Below are positions 8,994-59,944 of a DNA stretch of 64,000 nt, piece after piece (position 1 is the first letter of the stretch; each line of letters begins with the position of its first letter). Position numbers and translations under genes: made by a program. A model generated the notes under the pieces. It was not told the origin of the DNA. It did no database searches and saw only the letters and a program-made list of their open reading frames with translations. This DNA comes from a virus (Duplodnaviria > Heunggongvirae > Uroviricota > Caudoviricetes), in IMG/VR virus record IMGVR_UViG_3300031718_000177. The stretch is one strand, 5' to 3'.

Positions 8994-9987
8994 CTATCGG
9001 TGCATTTGTTCTTGTGTTCCACATACGGATTGCCGCTCGCGAACCACTAAAGGACTTACCTTGATGGTGCCTCATGTTCGCATAGGCCAGTAAGAACTCC
9101 TCGGCTTTGTTGTGTCTCTGGGGGAATAAGATATCTCGGTTGCGGGCATTCCCGGCCGTGAGAGGGATACGTCCGTTGATACCGACATAGCCGGAAATAT
9201 CAAAGCAGCTATCAAAGATACGTCGGTAAATGCTACTCGCTCTCTCTCTATGCTCTACCTTGAACTTTAAGAACACCATCGGACAGCCCTTGCCCGTAGT
9301 GGGATTGGCGTCGTGGTATTCGATACATTCAAGGATGTTAAGGTTATATTTGTTGAGTATCGCTCTAAGTAGAACGATGGTATCAACGCATCTGCTAGTT
9401 TCTACCTTTGCTGTTGTGGGTAGTTCGTTGCACGTATCGAACCATACCTTTGATGCTTCCGACCCCTCGTCATCATACGGATTGCCCAGGGCTTTATATA
9501 CCCGGTTGTTTCTAATCGCCCGGCTGAATGTAAATCCGATGATAGCTCCATCCCCAAAATCAAACTGACGGAGAAACCTTGCTACCTTATCGGTTATTTC
9601 GCCGCAGAAGTCGAAGAATGCAAGGTCCGTCTCGATGGCGTTGAGATAATGTATGTTATGGCTCTCGGCTTTGCCAGTGAATAGGATATTCTCTCCATCA
9701 TCACCGGGTTCGCCTCTATCGTCATGTAAGTTAAAACCCATATCTACACTGATAGGCCACTTGTTTTTGTGGAACCATCGGAGGATATGTGCAGCTTTCT
9801 CGCAGTCGTTTTCCCACATATAGAGCAAAGTATCTTTGTTGATGATACCTTTTGCCTTGGCTAAGGTCAAGTCAAGGCACTTGTCGCTCGGGAAGAAAGC
9901 AGCAACATGAGAGTAGGGAACATCCTTGAACATCAACTCACGGCATATATCTTTGTTACGCCGAACGCGGGAGCTATCATACGGCAT
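8962..9987 (-). CDS. Putative divergent Rossmann-fold methyltransferase-like protein
   Basis: 341 aa; LYMWEND (motif II-like) and DLAFFDFCG (motif IV-like); weak. Confidence 0.4.
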   Translation of the reverse strand: MPYDSSRVRRNKDICRELMFKDVPYSHVAAFFPSDKCLDLTLAKAKGIINKDTLLYMWENDCEKAAHILRWFHKNKWPISVDMGFNLHDDRGEPGDDGENILFTGKAESHNIHYLNAIETDLAFFDFCGEITDKVARFLRQFDFGDGAIIGFTFSRAIRNNRVYKALGNPYDDEGSEASKVWFDTCNELPTTAKVETSRCVDTIVLLRAILNKYNLNILECIEYHDANPTTGKGCPMVFLKFKVEHRERASSIYRRIFDSCFDISGYVGINGRIPLTAGNARNRDILFPQRHNKAEEFLLAYANMRHHQGKSFSGSRAAIRMWNTRTNAPIVESKSNNYDN

Positions 9988-10945: not shown

Positions 10946-11058
10946 GGATATGCTCCTCGGTCAAAGGGTTTTTTAGAAAGTTACTTGGGCGGTTTAGTTT
11001 TACCAACGCCGCACGGACGTAGTATGGAGTGTTGAACGCGGGAAAAGACTTTGTTTCG

Positions 11059-11220
11059 TTATGGATTACGTTGGCCTGTTACAAGTGCGATCAGGAACAG
11101 GACGATGAACACGACAAAGAGAACTTTCGCAACGCTTGCTGCCACACCGACAATTACGCCGAAACCAAGCATAGCAGCAATCAAGGCGATGACGAGAAAG
11201 GTGATTGCCCAACCAAGCAT
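11059..11220 (-). CDS. DUF1328/UPF0391 (YtjA-like) small membrane protein, 53 aa (not in ORF track)
   Basis: [49 protein letters not shown]; AAGGAG RBS. Confidence 0.9.
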
Positions 11221-11263
11221 TTGTCGCTCCTTTTTTAGTTAGATGGACGCGGTTTAGTACAGT

Positions 11264-15571: not shown

Positions 15572-15830
15572 AAAAAAAGGGACGCCGGTAGTAGCTCAAC
15601 GGTTACGGCAGCTTGAACCTAAACCTACCACTTACCGGCGTCCTAGTCGTTCTGTTTTGCCTTAATGCCGACGTAAACGTGTGGGGCTAACCCGGAGAAC
15701 AGATAAACCAAGTTTCGCTCTGATCCACCGCGAGCCATTAAGGGGCAACTACGCTAGGCGATTACTCGCTTCGGTGTTGTATCAACTATGAAAGCCCGAC
15801 CCTCAAACCCATTGACCCAAGTTAGAATTG
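15572..15830 (-). ncRNA. Candidate structured RNA ending in a long-stem terminator
   Basis: No sizeable ORF; 11-bp GGACGCCGGTA/TACCGGCGTCC stem + U7; upstream helices. Confidence 0.45.
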
Positions 15831-20489: not shown

Positions 20490-20677
20490 AAAAAACGAGC
20501 GTGCCTGATAGTTGCCTATCAGTTTCCCTCTGGCAAGAGCGAACGATTATCTAATTCCCCCACCACTTTCAGGCTCGCCCTCGGCTATACCGCACGATTT
20601 CCCGAAATTGTGGCACAGGAAGTACCTAGCGGTTGCTCAGCCCGCTTGGCCTTATCGTTCCTGAATTAGCACGCTTG
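20490..20677 (-). ncRNA. Candidate multi-stem structured RNA (about 190 nt)
   Basis: Closing helix CAAGCGTGC/GCACGCTCG + U6; GCAA-tetraloop hairpin CTGATAG/CTATCAG; further stems. Confidence 0.55.
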
Positions 20678-24988: not shown

Positions 24989-25270
24989 TTATTCGTAAAT
25001 GTCGTTGTCCGAATCTATAAGTACACCATCCTGCTCAGTGATAACATAATCCGTATAGCCATACATTGCGTCAACGCCAATAAGGAAAGCGTTCATTTCC
25101 GCTTCGGTATCAAAAACGAATTCTTCCCCTCTCTCTCCCTTCTTATACGCTTCTCGGCGATAGTTATCACCGCCCCAACGAATAGTCACGCTATACGACT
25201 TCTTCTCACCGGCAATGGGGTTACTCATGTTTTTACCTCTGTATGGTAAAGAGCAAATAGCCGCAGACAA
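24989..25270 (-). CDS. Hypothetical protein (true start probably MSNPIA)
   Basis: AGAGG RBS. Confidence 0.6.
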   Translation of the reverse strand: MSAAICSLPYRGKNMSNPIAGEKKSYSVTIRWGGDNYRREAYKKGERGEEFVFDTEAEMNAFLIGVDAMYGYTDYVITEQDGVLIDSDNDIYE

Positions 25271-25650
25271 GAATCGCTACGGCGTTTCCAGTTGTTATTA
25301 GTTAGGATTTGGCGACGAGCTTCCCGCATAACTGCTTCACCAAGTTTCTTGACGAATTGGTTATATGTCAATTTAGCAGCATTAGTAGAGAGCCCAATAC
25401 GTCGGCGGATATCTTCCCACGTAAGGGAAACACCTTCGCCAGTGGTGCCATTTGTTAGAGTATGCCCATATACCTTATCTGCTGCCCTACACCGCTCTAA
25501 AAAATCTTCGGCGTTTGTTTCGGTAATTTTGTTGATACCTACTGTCAGCGTGCGGAAAACGATAGCATCGGTGGTAGCAGCTTCGCTGGGATTCTCAGCA
25601 TGAAGTTCTTTAAGCTCTTTACACTTAGACCAATCGTAGTTTAATGACAT
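25225..25650 (-). CDS. Conserved phage hypothetical (MSLNY.W...IGLSTNA)
   Basis: Recognisable family motif. Confidence 0.7.
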   Translation of the reverse strand: MSLNYDWSKCKELKELHAENPSEAATTDAIVFRTLTVGINKITETNAEDFLERCRAADKVYGHTLTNGTTGEGVSLTWEDIRRRIGLSTNAAKLTYNQFVKKLGEAVMREARRQILTNNNWKRRSDSCLRLFALYHTEVKT

Positions 25651-27224: not shown

Positions 27225-27836
27225 CTATTCCTTGGGTTCAGGGTAAGTGTAACAATTGTCGCTTGCAATTACCAAACCACGTTTGAGAAGGCGTCGTCGG
27301 ATGAAAGTTGCTTGTCTAGTGGTACGCGGGAATACCTCAAATCCTTTTGGTCCAATATGTAATCCCGCCCCACTATTTATGATAAAATTGGAGATAGCTT
27401 CAACTGAGTATCTGCTATCGTCAATTACATTCCCTATAAGGACACGATATTCCTTTTTGACTGACTTTTGATTCCCTATCGTTATATGAAAGCGACCGTG
27501 CCCGAAACGAGTAGGAGCTAGCCCTAACTCTATGCGAATGTCCTCTAACTCTCTGGAATAAGCATTAAGGAAAAAATACTTGATATCTGAGTAGATACGA
27601 GGCTCATACTTGAATGATATAACTTGTCCCTCGTACTTTCGCCAATACTGTGCTTTCTTGTCTGCGGCTATTTGCTCTTTACCATAGCGAATTACGGTAA
27701 TATGCGGCGAATAGCGTGTGCCGTCTACAGTAATCCATTTGGGTATAAGGCGGCGATAGTAGATTGCTAGGTCATCGGTCAAATTGGCAACTACATAGCT
27801 ATCGCTATATGCTAGGACGCCTCGTGAGGAATACAT
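27225..27836 (-). CDS. 2H phosphoesterase superfamily protein
   Basis: Two HxT motifs (PHITVI, FHITIG) about 70 aa apart. Confidence 0.8.
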   Translation of the reverse strand: MYSSRGVLAYSDSYVVANLTDDLAIYYRRLIPKWITVDGTRYSPHITVIRYGKEQIAADKKAQYWRKYEGQVISFKYEPRIYSDIKYFFLNAYSRELEDIRIELGLAPTRFGHGRFHITIGNQKSVKKEYRVLIGNVIDDSRYSVEAISNFIINSGAGLHIGPKGFEVFPRTTRQATFIRRRLLKRGLVIASDNCYTYPEPKE

Positions 27837-29428: not shown

Positions 29429-30020
29429 TTGCTACACCTAGCAAATTGCGAACGGCCGTTTCCTTGTTTGCTTCCCGAATAGCGTTGAGCATCACTTGTT
29501 CCATCTCCACTCTTTGTCGCTCGCTTGCTAGTTCGATAGCTCTCTTCATCATTATTTTCTCTTTTGCTTTCTCGATCTTCGCTCTAACGTCGTCATATAC
29601 TCCATCAATCATAGCGACGATCATTTCGGCGAAATCGCGTCTCTTGGTATAGTCAATGATTTTGCTCATAATGCCAAGGCGAGACATGCCGTGATCGGGA
29701 GCATGTTTAACTCGCTTCACTCGCGGATCAAGTACATTGATCGCACGACCACGAAAGCGAACTTCCTGTATAGTGTCGGGAACATGGAAACTATAATTCC
29801 CAGTCCGCATCGAACGGTGAACCTTATATATTTCCTTTTCCCCATTTGCGCACACATAGCACAAATGGACAGCCACCCATCCGTTTATTGCCTTCAAGCT
29901 AATAAAGTTAGGTTCTGGGCCACTATCGTCCAATAGTGTATGGCAGAACTTAACAGGAACTTCAATCCGTTCCTTTTTGATTGTCTTATATTGCGGTTCG
30001 ATTGACCAACCTGGGGTCAT
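29415..30020 (-). CDS. Hypothetical protein with C-terminal coiled coil
   Basis: Tiling ORF. Confidence 0.7.
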   Translation of the reverse strand: MTPGWSIEPQYKTIKKERIEVPVKFCHTLLDDSGPEPNFISLKAINGWVAVHLCYVCANGEKEIYKVHRSMRTGNYSFHVPDTIQEVRFRGRAINVLDPRVKRVKHAPDHGMSRLGIMSKIIDYTKRRDFAEMIVAMIDGVYDDVRAKIEKAKEKIMMKRAIELASERQRVEMEQVMLNAIREANKETAVRNLLGVANDET

Positions 30021-42755: not shown

Positions 42756-42792
42756 GACAGGTTTTCCTTTGTGTGTTGGAAGATGGAATTAC

Positions 42793-42826
42793 TCGTCCAG
42801 ATAAGTTTTGTCGTCCAGATAAGTTT
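42793..42826. repeat. 18-nt-period tandem duplication in 5' leader
   Basis: tcgtccagataagttt x2. Confidence 0.85.
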
Positions 42827-42852
42827 CTGGCATTCCGCACCTTTAGTACAGC

Positions 42853-42917
42853 AAAAACTTCCATGTGCCATTGAGCCGAGAATAGCTGGGAAGCTAAACC
42901 GGCTCAATGGTGGCACA
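42853..42917 (-). terminator. Long hairpin + U-tract directly followed by CTGTACT
   Basis: CCATTGAGCCG/CGGCTCAATGG stem with inner TAGCT/AGCTA hairpin. Confidence 0.7.
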
Positions 42918-42928
42918 AGGAATGTCAA

Positions 42929-43255
42929 TCAGTTGGCCAGAGCGTCGAGGACGTTCTTGGCTTCGTGAAGGTTTCCGCAAGCGGAGAGGAAAGCACGACC
43001 GGCCTTGAGCACCTCAACGGCATTACCCGTATGAGCGGTCAGAGCCTTGCGAGCATTCTTCTTGCTCGTGTTCTTGGTATAGAACGCGGTTTTGATACTT
43101 CCATCCTTGGCATCGGGCCGCGTGGCCTGGACGAACTTGATGCACGCATTGATATCGTGCTCTTTCGTCGAAGCCTTGTAAGACGCAACGAGCGTCTTAA
43201 CCGTGACCTTCTTCGCCGGAGCCGTAGCTTCAGCAGTCGCAGAACTCTTAGTCAT
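42929..43255 (-). CDS. Small Lys/Ala-rich basic protein (putative DNA-binding)
   Basis: K/A-rich; C-terminal L.AG.AFL..CG.L..A..VL..L helices. Confidence 0.7.
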   Translation of the reverse strand: MTKSSATAEATAPAKKVTVKTLVASYKASTKEHDINACIKFVQATRPDAKDGSIKTAFYTKNTSKKNARKALTAHTGNAVEVLKAGRAFLSACGNLHEAKNVLDALAN

Positions 43256-48775: not shown

Positions 48776-49282
48776 TCATGGTTGTATTTCCGACAGAGGT
48801 TTTCCAAGGACTTTCGCAATTTGTTCTGGCGACTTTTTTTCTTGTGTAAGACAATCTACTATGATTTTAATACACTTAGGGCAAGTAACCCTTTTTTCGT
48901 CCTCAACACAATCGCCTTCTTTGTCTCCGCACGCCGAATAGCCACCAATCAATCCGGCTGAGTTGATGTGAATCTTTTCCTCTTTATACTCCACAGTAGG
49001 ACATTCTGGTGGAATTACAAACGCATCAAACCTATCACCCAGTCCATCTAAATGTAGTGTAGTTTTACGTTTCAATAACGCCATAGCAAATGAATGATTC
49101 TCAAAGCCAAGCGGTATTGCCGCACCATTTAGTACAGCAACATCACGCGGCTTCGCATGAGCATCAACATCCCAACAGCCCTTCTCTTTAATACATCCAG
49201 ATGATTTTCCGCATTGACATTTTCTTACTTTAAGTTGTAATTTAAGAACGTCATTACAATGAGGGCAGAAGAGGAGTTTCAC
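48776..49282 (-). CDS. Zinc-binding phage hypothetical (MKLLFCPHC...CQCG)
   Basis: Recognisable family motif. Confidence 0.75.
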   Translation of the reverse strand: MKLLFCPHCNDVLKLQLKVRKCQCGKSSGCIKEKGCWDVDAHAKPRDVAVLNGAAIPLGFENHSFAMALLKRKTTLHLDGLGDRFDAFVIPPECPTVEYKEEKIHINSAGLIGGYSACGDKEGDCVEDEKRVTCPKCIKIIVDCLTQEKKSPEQIAKVLGKPLSEIQP

Positions 49283-50100
49283 GGTTTATCCAATTCAGCT
49301 TCTAACTTTTTGTCTCTTTTGCCACCAACAAATATACCACATTCTTCATCATCGTTATCATCACTCTTGGGTTTCTGCTGCGATAGTTTTTCACTCATAT
49401 AATCTTGTAAATCTTCCTCCAAAACTAGAATTGTGCTCTGAAATACTTTATCTAGGGCCTCTAAGTGGTCTGCTAAATCCTCCCTAAGTGCATCGAACTT
49501 ATTTGTAATATATTCTTCTATATCAGGTGTCATTTTCCTTACTTTCTTTTTGGATATAGCAGTTTTTGATTTTGGTTTGGATTTCTTTATTGTTGGTTCG
49601 GACTTCTCCCACGGGTAGCGCCACCATCTAACATTATTCTTATCTTTAGTTAGATTGCTTAGATAGTTCTCTCGTTGACGACCACTATTACGGTAATCAG
49701 GATGATAATGGACTACATAAGCGGTTTTATCATCCTTAAATGAGGTAATCTTATATCTACCGCCCCCTTCGGTTCCGTAAACGACATCCCCTATTGCAAA
49801 TGTTTCGCCTCTATAATTTGCGTATTCATCCCACGTCGGCTGCCTAGTCGTTAAATCGTCTAACTTTATTAACCAGCCATCCGTACCTCTTGTGAGATTG
49901 TCTGCACGAGCAACAATTGCTTGTTTTTTTCTCTGCCCAAACGAGCGGATTTTATATCGGTGGCGGTTGTGTAGACCATAAACAATATCGCCTACTCGAA
50001 ATGTTTCGCCCCTACGATTTGTACACCTTAGTACAGTGTATTCCTCTACAGAGGATTTCCCCTTCCCGAATATTTTGTCCCAGTTACTTCTATAAGACAT
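49279..50100 (-). CDS. Protein with two tandem SH3-like RGETFxxGDxVYG repeats and coiled-coil tail
   Basis: Internal duplication seen in translation. Confidence 0.75.
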   Translation of the reverse strand: MSYRSNWDKIFGKGKSSVEEYTVLRCTNRRGETFRVGDIVYGLHNRHRYKIRSFGQRKKQAIVARADNLTRGTDGWLIKLDDLTTRQPTWDEYANYRGETFAIGDVVYGTEGGGRYKITSFKDDKTAYVVHYHPDYRNSGRQRENYLSNLTKDKNNVRWWRYPWEKSEPTIKKSKPKSKTAISKKKVRKMTPDIEEYITNKFDALREDLADHLEALDKVFQSTILVLEEDLQDYMSEKLSQQKPKSDDNDDEECGIFVGGKRDKKLEAELDKP

Positions 50101-50342
50101 TAGTTTCTGCCTTCTAGAAATCGTTCCAATATACGAGCAGTTCGTAGAGAAATGTTGTTTTGTAATTCGTGCTCTCTTACTACCTCTTTGATTAGGTGAA
50201 TAGCAGCTTCTAGTTGGTTATGTGTCCACGCAATGTCATTTGGGTCGCTCGCGGACATATGTTGTAATATTGTTTCTATCAGCGTAACTCTTTCTGGTTC
50301 TATTTCAAGGACAGCCTCATCAGAGAACACCGGGTCCATCAT
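50100..50342 (-). CDS. Hypothetical protein
   Basis: Tiling ORF. Confidence 0.65.
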   Translation of the reverse strand: MMDPVFSDEAVLEIEPERVTLIETILQHMSASDPNDIAWTHNQLEAAIHLIKEVVREHELQNNISLRTARILERFLEGRN

Positions 50343-50370: not shown

Positions 50371-50755
50371 AAAAAAACGGTGTGTCAGTTGCGTGCTTTT
50401 AACCGGGGTATTACCTTCATTCGACCGAGATTGCCCAGTCCAACCCCGTAACCTTAGTCGCCAACCAACCTACCGTTGCCGTGCAGGTGCCACAGCTAAC
50501 ACTATGACGCTTGAGTTGCATTCGGGTTTGATTTTTTTCACTATACCTATGTGATTGCTTGTCGGAATAGTGATTGACGGTCACTAATCCTTACGCCTAC
50601 ACATAAGCATAATGGGAAACGGGCATCTGCTACTGCTTACATTTCCAATCGTGAATGCGTGCGTTTTCCCCAGCTTTGTTTTAAGTGGCTATGCTGGCAA
50701 CCACTAAAGGTTCAGGTCAATTTTATCGCCGTAGGACGACCCTTTCCTACGTTTC
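50371..50755 (-). ncRNA. Candidate large structured ncRNA (about 385 nt)
   Basis: Longest ORF-free gap; at least 8 helices by eye; ends in stem + U7. Confidence 0.6.
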
Positions 50756-50941
50756 TTAATGGCTTTCACCATTAAGAGGCAATTCGCGTATTCTTCTTTT
50801 TCTTCTTTGTGCGGAATCGTAACGCTGTATCTCATAAAAGTCAACTGGCCGTTTGACTAAACCTTTATCCCTTAGCTCTTGCCATTCCTCCCACGAGAGA
50901 TGACAACTACTTCGGATTTCGTTCCATTCGACATAGCTCAT
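50756..50941 (-). CDS. Hypothetical protein
   Basis: Tiling ORF. Confidence 0.6.
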   Translation of the reverse strand: MSYVEWNEIRSSCHLSWEEWQELRDKGLVKRPVDFYEIQRYDSAQRRKRRIRELPLNGESH

Positions 50942-51375: not shown

Positions 51376-51623
51376 CCTTCAATGGCCTTCTTTGTCGGTA
51401 TTTCATGGTGTTCGGGCATCCCCGCTGTAACTCGTAACGGCCTAGGTGCTCGCGCTTTCCAAGCAACCTTGGGCTGACTGCTTTCTATAAGTACAGAACT
51501 ATCGCGTCCCTCAATATTCTCGGCCTCTGCTTGACCACCACGTACTTTAAGCATAATGGTTTTGTTTAGATGCTCTGGGTGATTAGACGCCCAAGCAACT
51601 AGGTCAGCAAGAGTGAGAAACAT
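51339..51623 (-). CDS. Hypothetical protein
   Basis: Tiling ORF. Confidence 0.6.
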   Translation of the reverse strand: MFLTLADLVAWASNHPEHLNKTIMLKVRGGQAEAENIEGRDSSVLIESSQPKVAWKARAPRPLRVTAGMPEHHEIPTKKAIEGWDIPLLPRKEL

Positions 51624-52670: not shown

Positions 52671-52879
52671 TTACCGAGAGCGTAAAGTGCTGGATTCGAT
52701 TTAGCTTGGGGGGACCGTAGGATGATCTCGCCGATCATACTAAGTAGATTGACTTCAATCTTCAAGGTAATACGAGTATCGCCTTCCCACGATTCGAGTT
52801 TATCTCGGCGTGGGGTATTTTGCTGCGGAGCATGACGATCCTGATGATTTTCAGGGTCGTCCACATCGTTATAAACCAC
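52640..52879 (-). CDS. Hypothetical protein
   Basis: Tiling ORF. Confidence 0.55.
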   Translation of the reverse strand: MVYNDVDDPENHQDRHAPQQNTPRRDKLESWEGDTRITLKIEVNLLSMIGEIILRSPQAKSNPALYALGKWIERCVEVE

Positions 52880-52988
52880 GTTGACACCTTAAAAGAAAAG
52901 AAAGAAAAAGTAGAGTTAGAAATTGTTGTAGACAGTAACCACCAGGGAGTTATTAGCTCCCTAGTGGTTCGTTTCTGTCTAGTGCGAA

Positions 52989-53429
52989 CTAGGCCGCAAC
53001 CGGCTCCGCGAAAGCGGAATGGCATTCGTTCCACGCTTCCAATGCGTTAACCATCTTGTCGAGGCTTCCAACCTCTTGCACGGTCTTCAAGAAACCAACC
53101 GTAGCTGCAATCGTCTCAGCCTCGGTAGCTCGCTTGAAGTTCTTGGTGGCGAATTGCAGAGCCATAACCATCTGCTCCTTCGTCACCTTACCGGCACTAC
53201 CACCTCGCTTGCTGCTCGTGGGAATACCCAGTTCCTTACGAACCGAACCGATCAAGCGACCACCCGGATGACCCCAGGTGGTAGGCGACCAACGCGGATC
53301 GGCCTCGACTTGCTTCTGGTCGTAATCACGGTGCTCACTAAGGATCGCCTTAATGGTAGCCCGCTTCTCGGCATTCTTCTCGGCTTCAGTCTGTTCAACG
53401 ACAGGCTTGCCACTCTTCTTTTCGGACAT
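52989..53429 (-). CDS. Basic Lys/Ala-rich protein (putative DNA-binding)
   Basis: GGAG RBS; GC3-rich codons; C-terminal FLKTVQEVGSLDKMVNALEAW. Confidence 0.75.
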   Translation of the reverse strand: MSEKKSGKPVVEQTEAEKNAEKRATIKAILSEHRDYDQKQVEADPRWSPTTWGHPGGRLIGSVRKELGIPTSSKRGGSAGKVTKEQMVMALQFATKNFKRATEAETIAATVGFLKTVQEVGSLDKMVNALEAWNECHSAFAEPVAA

Positions 53430-58914: not shown

Positions 58915-59148
58915 TCATGTGTCTCGCCTTTTCAGGGACCAAGGAAAAGCATCGCCATCAAACGATATCTGAACTACTTCTAGTCCATGTGGTTTCAATA
59001 TATCGTCTAGTTTTTTGAGGAAATCACCACCCAAGCCACTATCACTATTTGCTCGTTCCATAGTTTTCCAGTCCCAAAAGAAAACCTTGTTGGACAAAGC
59101 AAAATCACCGTAAATGGCTTCTGCTTCTCGCTCTGGCATCGTTCGCAT
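58915..59148 (-). CDS. Hypothetical protein
   Basis: Tiling ORF. Confidence 0.65.
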   Translation of the reverse strand: MRTMPEREAEAIYGDFALSNKVFFWDWKTMERANSDSGLGGDFLKKLDDILKPHGLEVVQISFDGDAFPWSLKRRDT

Positions 59149-59944
59149 TGTTCTTCCTTTGAGTTGAGAGGGAATACCTTTGACTTCGCAGAAGAGAAGC
59201 TCTAATTTTGCTTTTTACTTCCTCAGTACAGGGCCGTCCTTCCTCGCCATCTACATTTAATATTGCTTTTAATTTCCGAATGCCCTTGAACCACCATTGT
59301 CTTGCCATTTCTCTTGAGACAATACGATAACCATTATATTTTCGCTTAAACTTAGCTATATTTCCCAATTTGATACCCAGTAATCTACCTCGTATAGCAA
59401 ATCGCTCGTTGCGAGTCAAGTTAAGACGTATAAGTTCCCATATCCAAATGTTATCCTTGATAGGGTCGGGGTTACGATATAACGCCTTACATCGCGTGTT
59501 GTCGGTGATCTCCTCTGTTCCGTTGAGGGCAGCTTCATATTGAGCGGCGAAGGCAGGAGTTTTTTTAGAACTTGGCAATCTAACTATATGCTCGCGGAGG
59601 TAACTTCGAGCAAAAGCAGCCCTAACTTGCCAACTCACGAATGTTGTCAGTCGTCCCCTTTTTGGATTAAACTTGTGCATATTTTCTACGATATATAAAT
59701 TGAGAATGCCAACCTTATCATTAAGAGACGCATAGCTATGAGTGTTACGCTTAGCCAGATAAACTAGGAATGGCAATACTGCTTCTACAAGTTTGTTTCT
59801 TGCATTGATACGTGCTTTCTTCGTTTTACATTTCATCATCTTCTTATGCAGTTTTATCTCCTCCTCCTTCGACAAAAATACACAACTCCCTAGATCGCGG
59901 AGGTAAGTGGCTTCTATGTTAGCTAGATCGGCAGATTTCTGCAT
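59105..59944 (-). CDS. Sigma70-family RNA polymerase sigma factor (regions 1.2, 2, 4)
   Basis: YLRDLG..FLSKEEE (1.2); ARNKLVEAVL...KFNPKRGRLTTFVSWQVR (2); LTRNER...VSREMARQ...GIRKL (4). Confidence 0.85.
   Translation of the reverse strand: MQKSADLANIEATYLRDLGSCVFLSKEEEIKLHKKMMKCKTKKARINARNKLVEAVLPFLVYLAKRNTHSYASLNDKVGILNLYIVENMHKFNPKRGRLTTFVSWQVRAAFARSYLREHIVRLPSSKKTPAFAAQYEAALNGTEEITDNTRCKALYRNPDPIKDNIWIWELIRLNLTRNERFAIRGRLLGIKLGNIAKFKRKYNGYRIVSREMARQWWFKGIRKLKAILNVDGEEGRPCTEEVKSKIRASLLRSQRYSLSTQRKNNANDARARSRSHLR

Follow-up and report, generated by a model that had tools for sequence, protein, structure and literature searches.

Catalogues list few large structured phage RNAs, and the functions of most are unknown. 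The large RNAs GOLLD, ROOL, and OLE, whose structures have been solved, form unexpected RNA-only assemblies. GOLLD and ROOL are phage-borne, large multi-pseudoknot RNAs that build RNA-only cages, and for both the function and the protein partner are unknown (PMC12286853). Here we describe a minus-strand locus in an uncultured phage-like genome that, judging from its predicted fold, probably encodes a new structured phage noncoding RNA (ncRNA), an orphan and a single-sequence case. It is about 400 nt long compared with about 660 and 800+ nt for ROOL and GOLLD, and while many GOLLD and ROOL loci lie near tRNA arrays, ARAGORN detected no tRNA or tmRNA genes in the candidate's 64-kb window. An RNA of 400 nt with tandem pseudoknots is small enough for direct transcription, probing, and imaging, and if the fold is true as predicted, it would bring a new architecture, perhaps even an RNA switch of phage origin. 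The value of the finding is capped because it rests on one sequence.

Genomic setting of the locus

The window, meaning the whole 64-kb stretch of DNA that was analysed, is part of a 292,671-bp metagenomic contig (ENA ERZ27256860). Small minus-strand ORFs fill it, most of those tested having no family match, and it encodes a divergent sigma factor and an HD protein, so far as can be judged a gene content as in jumbo-phage accessory regions. Nine neighbouring proteins each form single-member clusters, the 273-aa and 80-aa proteins matched only themselves, and the sigma factor had no relative at E<=1e-20 and none among cultured phages. By these protein comparisons, the phage lineage is an orphan. 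The 133-aa and 168-aa proteins do have weak relatives, which sit in other gene contexts that lack the candidate RNA. One search bearing on the host yielded just a weak PDZ match, in a Myxococcales genome.

Elsewhere in the window, a perfect 32-nt inverted repeat (25242-25273 and 27655-27686, arms 2381 nt apart) encloses genes that all lie on the minus strand and possibly marks an invertible segment or transposon-like ends. A short hydrophobic ORF at 10946-11263 (minus strand) resembles, by eye, DUF1328 small membrane proteins.

The candidate RNA lies in 413 nt without a called gene, between a 61-aa ORF (50941-50756) and an 80-aa ORF (50342-50100), in otherwise densely coding surroundings. The reading of the sequence alone that preceded this analysis (hereafter the sequence-only reading) had called this the largest ORF-free gap; it is among the largest, but under a 58-aa rule it comes second, behind 1463-1908. 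The gene caller skipped two short ORFs within it, a 55-aa GTG ORF and a 53-aa plus-strand ORF. The candidate has the orientation of all flanking genes and begins at the upstream stop codon, and a Shine-Dalgarno-like site at 50362-50355 precedes the 80-aa ORF.

50756-50941, minus strand: upstream 61-aa orphan ORF; its start overlaps the stop of a 133-aa ORF and its stop abuts the RNA
50371-50777, minus strand: candidate structured ncRNA, consisting of a core (50755-50371) and an upstream hairpin
50100-50342, minus strand: downstream 80-aa orphan ORF, starting 28 nt past the U tract

Predicted anatomy of the RNA

The structural model, predicted from one sequence, runs from two tandem pseudoknots at the 5' end through a central three-way junction to a long 3' stem and a U tract.

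50754-50777, minus strand: hairpin H0, 10 bp with a GAAA tetraloop (pair probability 0.98)
50714-50751, minus strand: predicted H-type pseudoknot A (single-sequence prediction)
50707-50712, minus strand: inter-pseudoknot linker, complementary over 6 bp to 50455-50450, an internal-loop strand of the 3' domain
50670-50705, minus strand: predicted H-type pseudoknot B (found by an H-type rule search)
50518-50658, minus strand: central three-way-junction domain, in which P4 (6 bp) closes P5 and a long P6 arm
50478-50496, minus strand: hairpin P7, 6 bp with a 7-nt loop; alternative pairings exist
50376-50477, minus strand: 3' domain, a 100-nt interrupted hairpin (z -3.39)
50371-50377, minus strand: U7 tract, the probable 3' end, terminator-like; its stem closes the 100-nt domain

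The composite model holds 18 helices without conflicts, with about 116 bp, 13 of them G-U, and 234 of 410 nt paired. All the complementary segments listed in the sequence-only reading are present on the minus strand where it had placed them, as is the U7 end (50377-50371), which a canonical terminator scan did not pick up. Its third helix is disfavoured, as the 3' strand of that helix pairs with 50646-50640 at a probability of 0.88. Structure also reaches beyond its limit at 50755, up to hairpin H0 (50777-50754), which overlaps the 61-aa ORF at its final codons and stop and may or may not belong to the RNA.

Pseudoknots A and B, both missing from that reading, would be 36-38 nt each and stand back to back at the 5' end, 46 nt apart. 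Pseudoknot A combines a 7-bp stem 1 (50751-50745/50736-50730) with a 6-bp stem 2 (50742-50737/50719-50714) that includes two G-U pairs, joined by an A-rich linker; pseudoknot B combines a 7-bp stem 1 (50705-50699/50690-50684) with a 5-bp stem 2 (50697-50693/50674-50670) and has an A-rich loop 3. The H-type rule finds 7 sites on the whole 64-kb minus strand, 2 of them inside the candidate RNA, and among 1500 shuffles it found one site in 20 and two in 0. These counts overstate the significance of the pseudoknots because the rule was chosen post hoc, with the sequence already seen. Pairing of the linker with the internal loop is weak taken alone, as 4.5% of window segments pair equally well. A role of pseudoknot A as a recoding signal was rejected: it begins 4 nt past the stop codon, no slippery site precedes it, and readthrough would meet a stop after two codons.

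In the central domain, P5 and P6 are stacked in the predicted junction. The P6 arm starts with 15 contiguous bp including three G-U pairs (pair probability 1.0), followed by helices of 2, 3, and 6 bp. Two loops interrupt the 3' domain, one a 10x10 internal loop and the other asymmetric and purine-rich.

Folding strength against controls

Folded as RNA, the minus strand of the element reaches -126.5 kcal/mol (z -3.79) and beats 100 of 100 dinucleotide shuffles, a check that the sequence-only reading had itself named; the plus strand gives z -0.68, and folding with DNA parameters gives z 0.00. The central 147-nt domain stands out at z -6.83 on the minus strand versus -1.84 on the plus strand, as does the P6 arm (z -6.73 versus -2.46), where the three G-U pairs of the 15-bp helix turn into mismatches on the opposite strand. 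The flanks gave z -2.63 (minus) and -3.0 (plus) for the 5' part and z -3.39 (minus) and -3.1 (plus) for the 3' part on its own. Taken together, the pairing potential of the minus strand is dense and RNA-specific.

Set against the rest of the window, the central domain ranks 2nd of 863 147-nt windows, and the whole element 3rd of 165 385-nt tiles, two of which fold better. The background is heavy-tailed, with 7 of the 863 windows at z<=-5, several of them inside genes, and the raw energy gap between minus and plus strands (-23.8) falls inside the genome spread (mean -4.4, sd 14.4). Because of this heavy tail and the unexceptional strand gap, the folding signal is strong yet not unique, and other windows of the genome match it. 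The share of A among unpaired bases is 0.44 versus 0.46 in shuffles, so there is no enrichment. The claim of a structured ncRNA stands as to strand-specific, RNA-level structure without an Rfam match, whereas several of the helices first drawn had to be revised and two pseudoknots had been overlooked.

Three other minus-strand segments (9242-9388, 52681-53270, and 29581-29965) are coding, yet their folding equals or beats that of the candidate RNA. Another, 42764-43200 (minus strand), reaches a z of about -6 across a Lys/Ala-rich 108-aa ORF (42929-43255) and a long hairpin after it; the exact sequence of this ORF is absent from the protein collection searched.

Tests against known families and homolog searches

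An Rfam scan of the element, likewise named as a check in the sequence-only reading, returned nothing at the gathering score and only chance-level matches at E<=10. That reading had recognised no tRNA, tmRNA, RNase P, or group II domain V signatures, and ARAGORN, Rfam, and motif checks bear it out. T-loop, 3' CCA, hammerhead core, and domain V motifs are absent from the element, and no catalytic or guide signature was found in it. Given the Rfam, ARAGORN, and motif negatives, the element falls outside every family tested. The covariance models of GOLLD and ROOL in particular gave no match either at the gathering score or at E<=10.

Several individual candidates were examined and rejected. For tmRNA, there is no T-arm and no 3' CCA, ARAGORN and Rfam are negative, and the frames past pseudoknot B, read by eye, contain no ssrA-like tag and lie inside stable helices. 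For a group I intron, an S-like segment (about 50550-50539) lies 5' of an R-like one (about 50461-50455), the P7 partner is missing downstream, and Rfam is negative; for a group II intron, the domain V motif is absent and Rfam is negative. Look-alikes of the conserved regions I and V of RNase P RNA cannot form P4, and Rfam is again negative. The T-box 7-mer UGGNACC occurs once (about 9% by chance), with poor flanking helices and no Rfam match. Small self-cleaving ribozymes (hammerhead, HDV/theta, pistol, twister) were rejected on the missing hammerhead core and negative Rfam scan; one HDV-L3-like 7-mer is present, and its P1/P1.1 partners are missing. A retron msr-msd was rejected on the poor folding of the complement of P6 as DNA (z -1.46) and on the lack of a recognised reverse transcriptase among the neighbouring ORFs examined.

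Homolog searches were negative throughout. Blastn detected no homolog of the element among INPHARED phages and plasmids, and six DNA patterns in IMG/VR and one in JGI metagenomes gave negative or chance results. A one-sequence covariance model of the central domain found none in the window, the collected loci, or five viral records, nor in 151 genomes of one bacterial phylum, probably not that of the host. No paralog exists within the 64-kb window, and the best partial look-alike, inside a tail-assembly gene, was rejected. Distant relatives would escape these searches, which either demanded identical words of 16-22 bases or some 65-70% identity or sampled few genomes, and because the lineage is an orphan, an absence of homologs is expected whether the RNA is real or not.

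Transcription signals

No promoter was detected above chance directly upstream of the element. Two sigma-70 matches were set aside: one of 11/12 at 51649-51622 overlaps the start codon of a 94-aa ORF and is probably due to chance, and one of 9/12 at 50844-50816 is at chance level. All 58 copies of the heptamer CTGTACT (span 65-63404) are on the minus strand, often right behind U tracts and shortly ahead of start codons. The heptamer may be a phage promoter element, a candidate for the sigma factor encoded at 59105-59944. Its nearest copy upstream of the RNA is at 51496, inside the 94-aa ORF; there is none within 740 nt upstream of the element and none between U7 and the next start codon. On the simplest reading, we infer that the RNA is co-transcribed with the 133-aa and 61-aa ORFs and terminates at U7.

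Two other minus-strand gaps deserve mention. Gap 15572-15830 contains a probable pseudoknot, an 8-bp stem whose loop pairs just downstream, and, after it, a stem of 11 bp that carries a long insert and leads into U7; a 7-bp stem sequence is common to this gap and H0, with no significant overall alignment. Gap 20490-20677 has a compact multi-branched fold that a terminal helix closes, then U6, and a CTGTACT follows immediately. Neither shares significant sequence with the element (alignment scores 30-31; background mean 38.5). Because these two gaps share it, an ending in a stem and U tract is a local habit.

Proposed role

We propose, at what we take to be even chances, that the locus yields a stable, compact ncRNA from the 3'-terminal part of a transcript of small genes, and that this RNA, a scaffold or decoy, would be like GOLLD and ROOL without being a member. 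The RNA, ~385-410 nt long, would work through a compact tertiary fold. It would be made as the 3' end of the message running through the 133-aa and 61-aa ORFs, and the coding part would then be processed and decay so that the stable RNA remains, its 5' end guarded by the tandem pseudoknots, its 3' end by the long stem, and its inter-pseudoknot linker docked in the internal loop of the 3' domain. Our guess is that it would act in trans during infection, binding a host protein, an RNP, or its own copies, as proposed for GOLLD and ROOL. A bolder reading, which we hold tentatively and somewhat doubt, sees in it the founder of a new class of large, ornate phage-borne RNAs from an otherwise unrepresented jumbo-phage lineage; the linker of its tandem pseudoknots would clamp the 3' domain, and an alternative fold would toggle termination.

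The second gene downstream encodes the 273-aa orphan protein (49279-50100, minus strand), in which two repeats, sharing 51% identity over 37 aa, are accompanied by a basic linker and an acidic tail. Its weak structural neighbours include KOW/SH3 proteins (TM<0.4). It is a possible nucleic-acid binder and, as such, a lead for a partner of the RNA.

Competing fold and rival explanations

A second predicted structure competes with the model described above.

50445-50716, minus strand: alternative helix of 50716-50693 with 50465-50445 (20 bp, -26.4 kcal/mol)

This long-range helix excludes pseudoknot B and the 3' domain. The 3' domain that the sequence-only reading had drawn does fold alone (z -3.4), but the nested minimum-energy structure of the whole element holds the long-range helix instead (-126.5 versus -122.0 kcal/mol), leaving the 3'-domain state 4.5 kcal/mol higher before the three pseudoknot helices are counted. 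The competing fold may be a genuine switch or a by-product. If the element were instead an attenuator or riboswitch acting in cis on transcription of the downstream 80-aa, 273-aa, and 168-aa genes, the 20-bp helix would form in one state and block the terminator-like 3' domain; pseudoknot B, possibly with a ligand or protein to stabilise it, would form in the other and free that domain for termination at U7. We consider such a switch unlikely. The two states are mutually exclusive and lie within 4.5 kcal/mol of nested energy, the helix appears in prefix folds at 305-315 nt, once its 3' strand is transcribed, its duplex outscores pairing with any of 6344 other window segments, and U7 stands 28 nt ahead of a start codon that has a Shine-Dalgarno site, with no CTGTACT in between. 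Nevertheless, 18% of shuffles hold a long-range duplex reaching -26.4 kcal/mol, the stem preceding U7, which closes a 100-nt domain, differs from a canonical terminator, no riboswitch family matches, and no metabolic role was recognised for the downstream genes, all of them orphans. It is distinctly unlikely, in our view, that the gap holds no single functional RNA at all and instead an mRNA trailer whose end resembles a terminator, with a stabilising hairpin or two and chance pairing in a decayed-gene gap. This might be argued from the element having been found in a single genome, from the heavy-tailed background of that genome, with well-folding windows within genes, and from the long-range stem and U6-7 that likewise end gaps 15572-15830 and 20490-20677. 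Against this reading, each of the three subdomains beats its shuffles (z -2.6, -6.8, and -3.4), and termination needs neither tandem pseudoknots nor a 15-bp helix containing G-U pairs.

It is very unlikely that the models missed a far-diverged representative of a known class (tmRNA, RNase P RNA, group I intron, or a retron-like msr-msd). The length would suit tmRNA and ORF-less group I introns, the tandem pseudoknots and long enclosing helix are reminiscent of tmRNA, one can pick out by eye short look-alikes of group I R/S and RNase P conserved regions, and the P6 arm resembles an msd hairpin; however, Rfam is negative for these families even at E<=10 and ARAGORN is negative, the T-loop, 3' CCA, hammerhead core, and domain V motifs are absent, the S-like element precedes the R-like one with no P7 partner downstream, the RNase P P4 strands cannot pair, and the DNA complement of P6 folds poorly, with no reverse transcriptase among the ORFs examined. 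Pseudo-ToxI of phage phiTE is a precedent for decoys against type III toxin-antitoxin abortive infection, and the tandem pseudoknots here, H-type, 36-38 nt each, and separated by A-rich linkers in a region crowded with small accessory genes, might similarly mimic ToxI/TenpI/CptI units. Such mimicry is nonetheless highly unlikely, as the two units do not repeat one another, Rfam gave no ToxI-family match, and 300 nt would stay unexplained.

Comparison with known systems

The candidate resembles tmRNA (RF00023, including two-piece forms) in its length, its predicted consecutive H-type pseudoknots with A-rich linkers, and a possible long enclosing helix, whereas tmRNA has a tRNA-like domain and an ssrA tag frame and the candidate has neither. 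Flaviviral xrRNA1/2, tandem pseudoknots in a 3' UTR, offer another analogy. RNA-virus 3' UTRs with tandem pseudoknots show the same order of stop codon, two pseudoknots, central domain, and long 3' stem, and pseudoknot B scores 9.9 bits against TMV UPD-PK3 (RF01072), which at E 7.3 is chance level. The candidate belongs to a bacterial DNA phage and has simple H-type knots, whereas xrRNA forms a three-way-junction ring, so this is an analogy only. The outline of pseudoknot B is also one that we take to resemble the preQ1-I aptamer, with a short stem, a loop of about 12 nt, and an A-rich tail. In preQ1-I, however, a ligand-pairing C comes before the 3' strand of P1, where pseudoknot B has a stem-extending G, and the candidate has no Rfam match to this riboswitch and no queuosine genes downstream. 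Like the candidate as predicted, ROOL (RF03087) and GOLLD (RF02032) are phage-borne and free of protein-coding sequence, with many helices and several pseudoknots (PMC12286853). By this analogy, the candidate is a non-member nearest in kind to GOLLD and ROOL.
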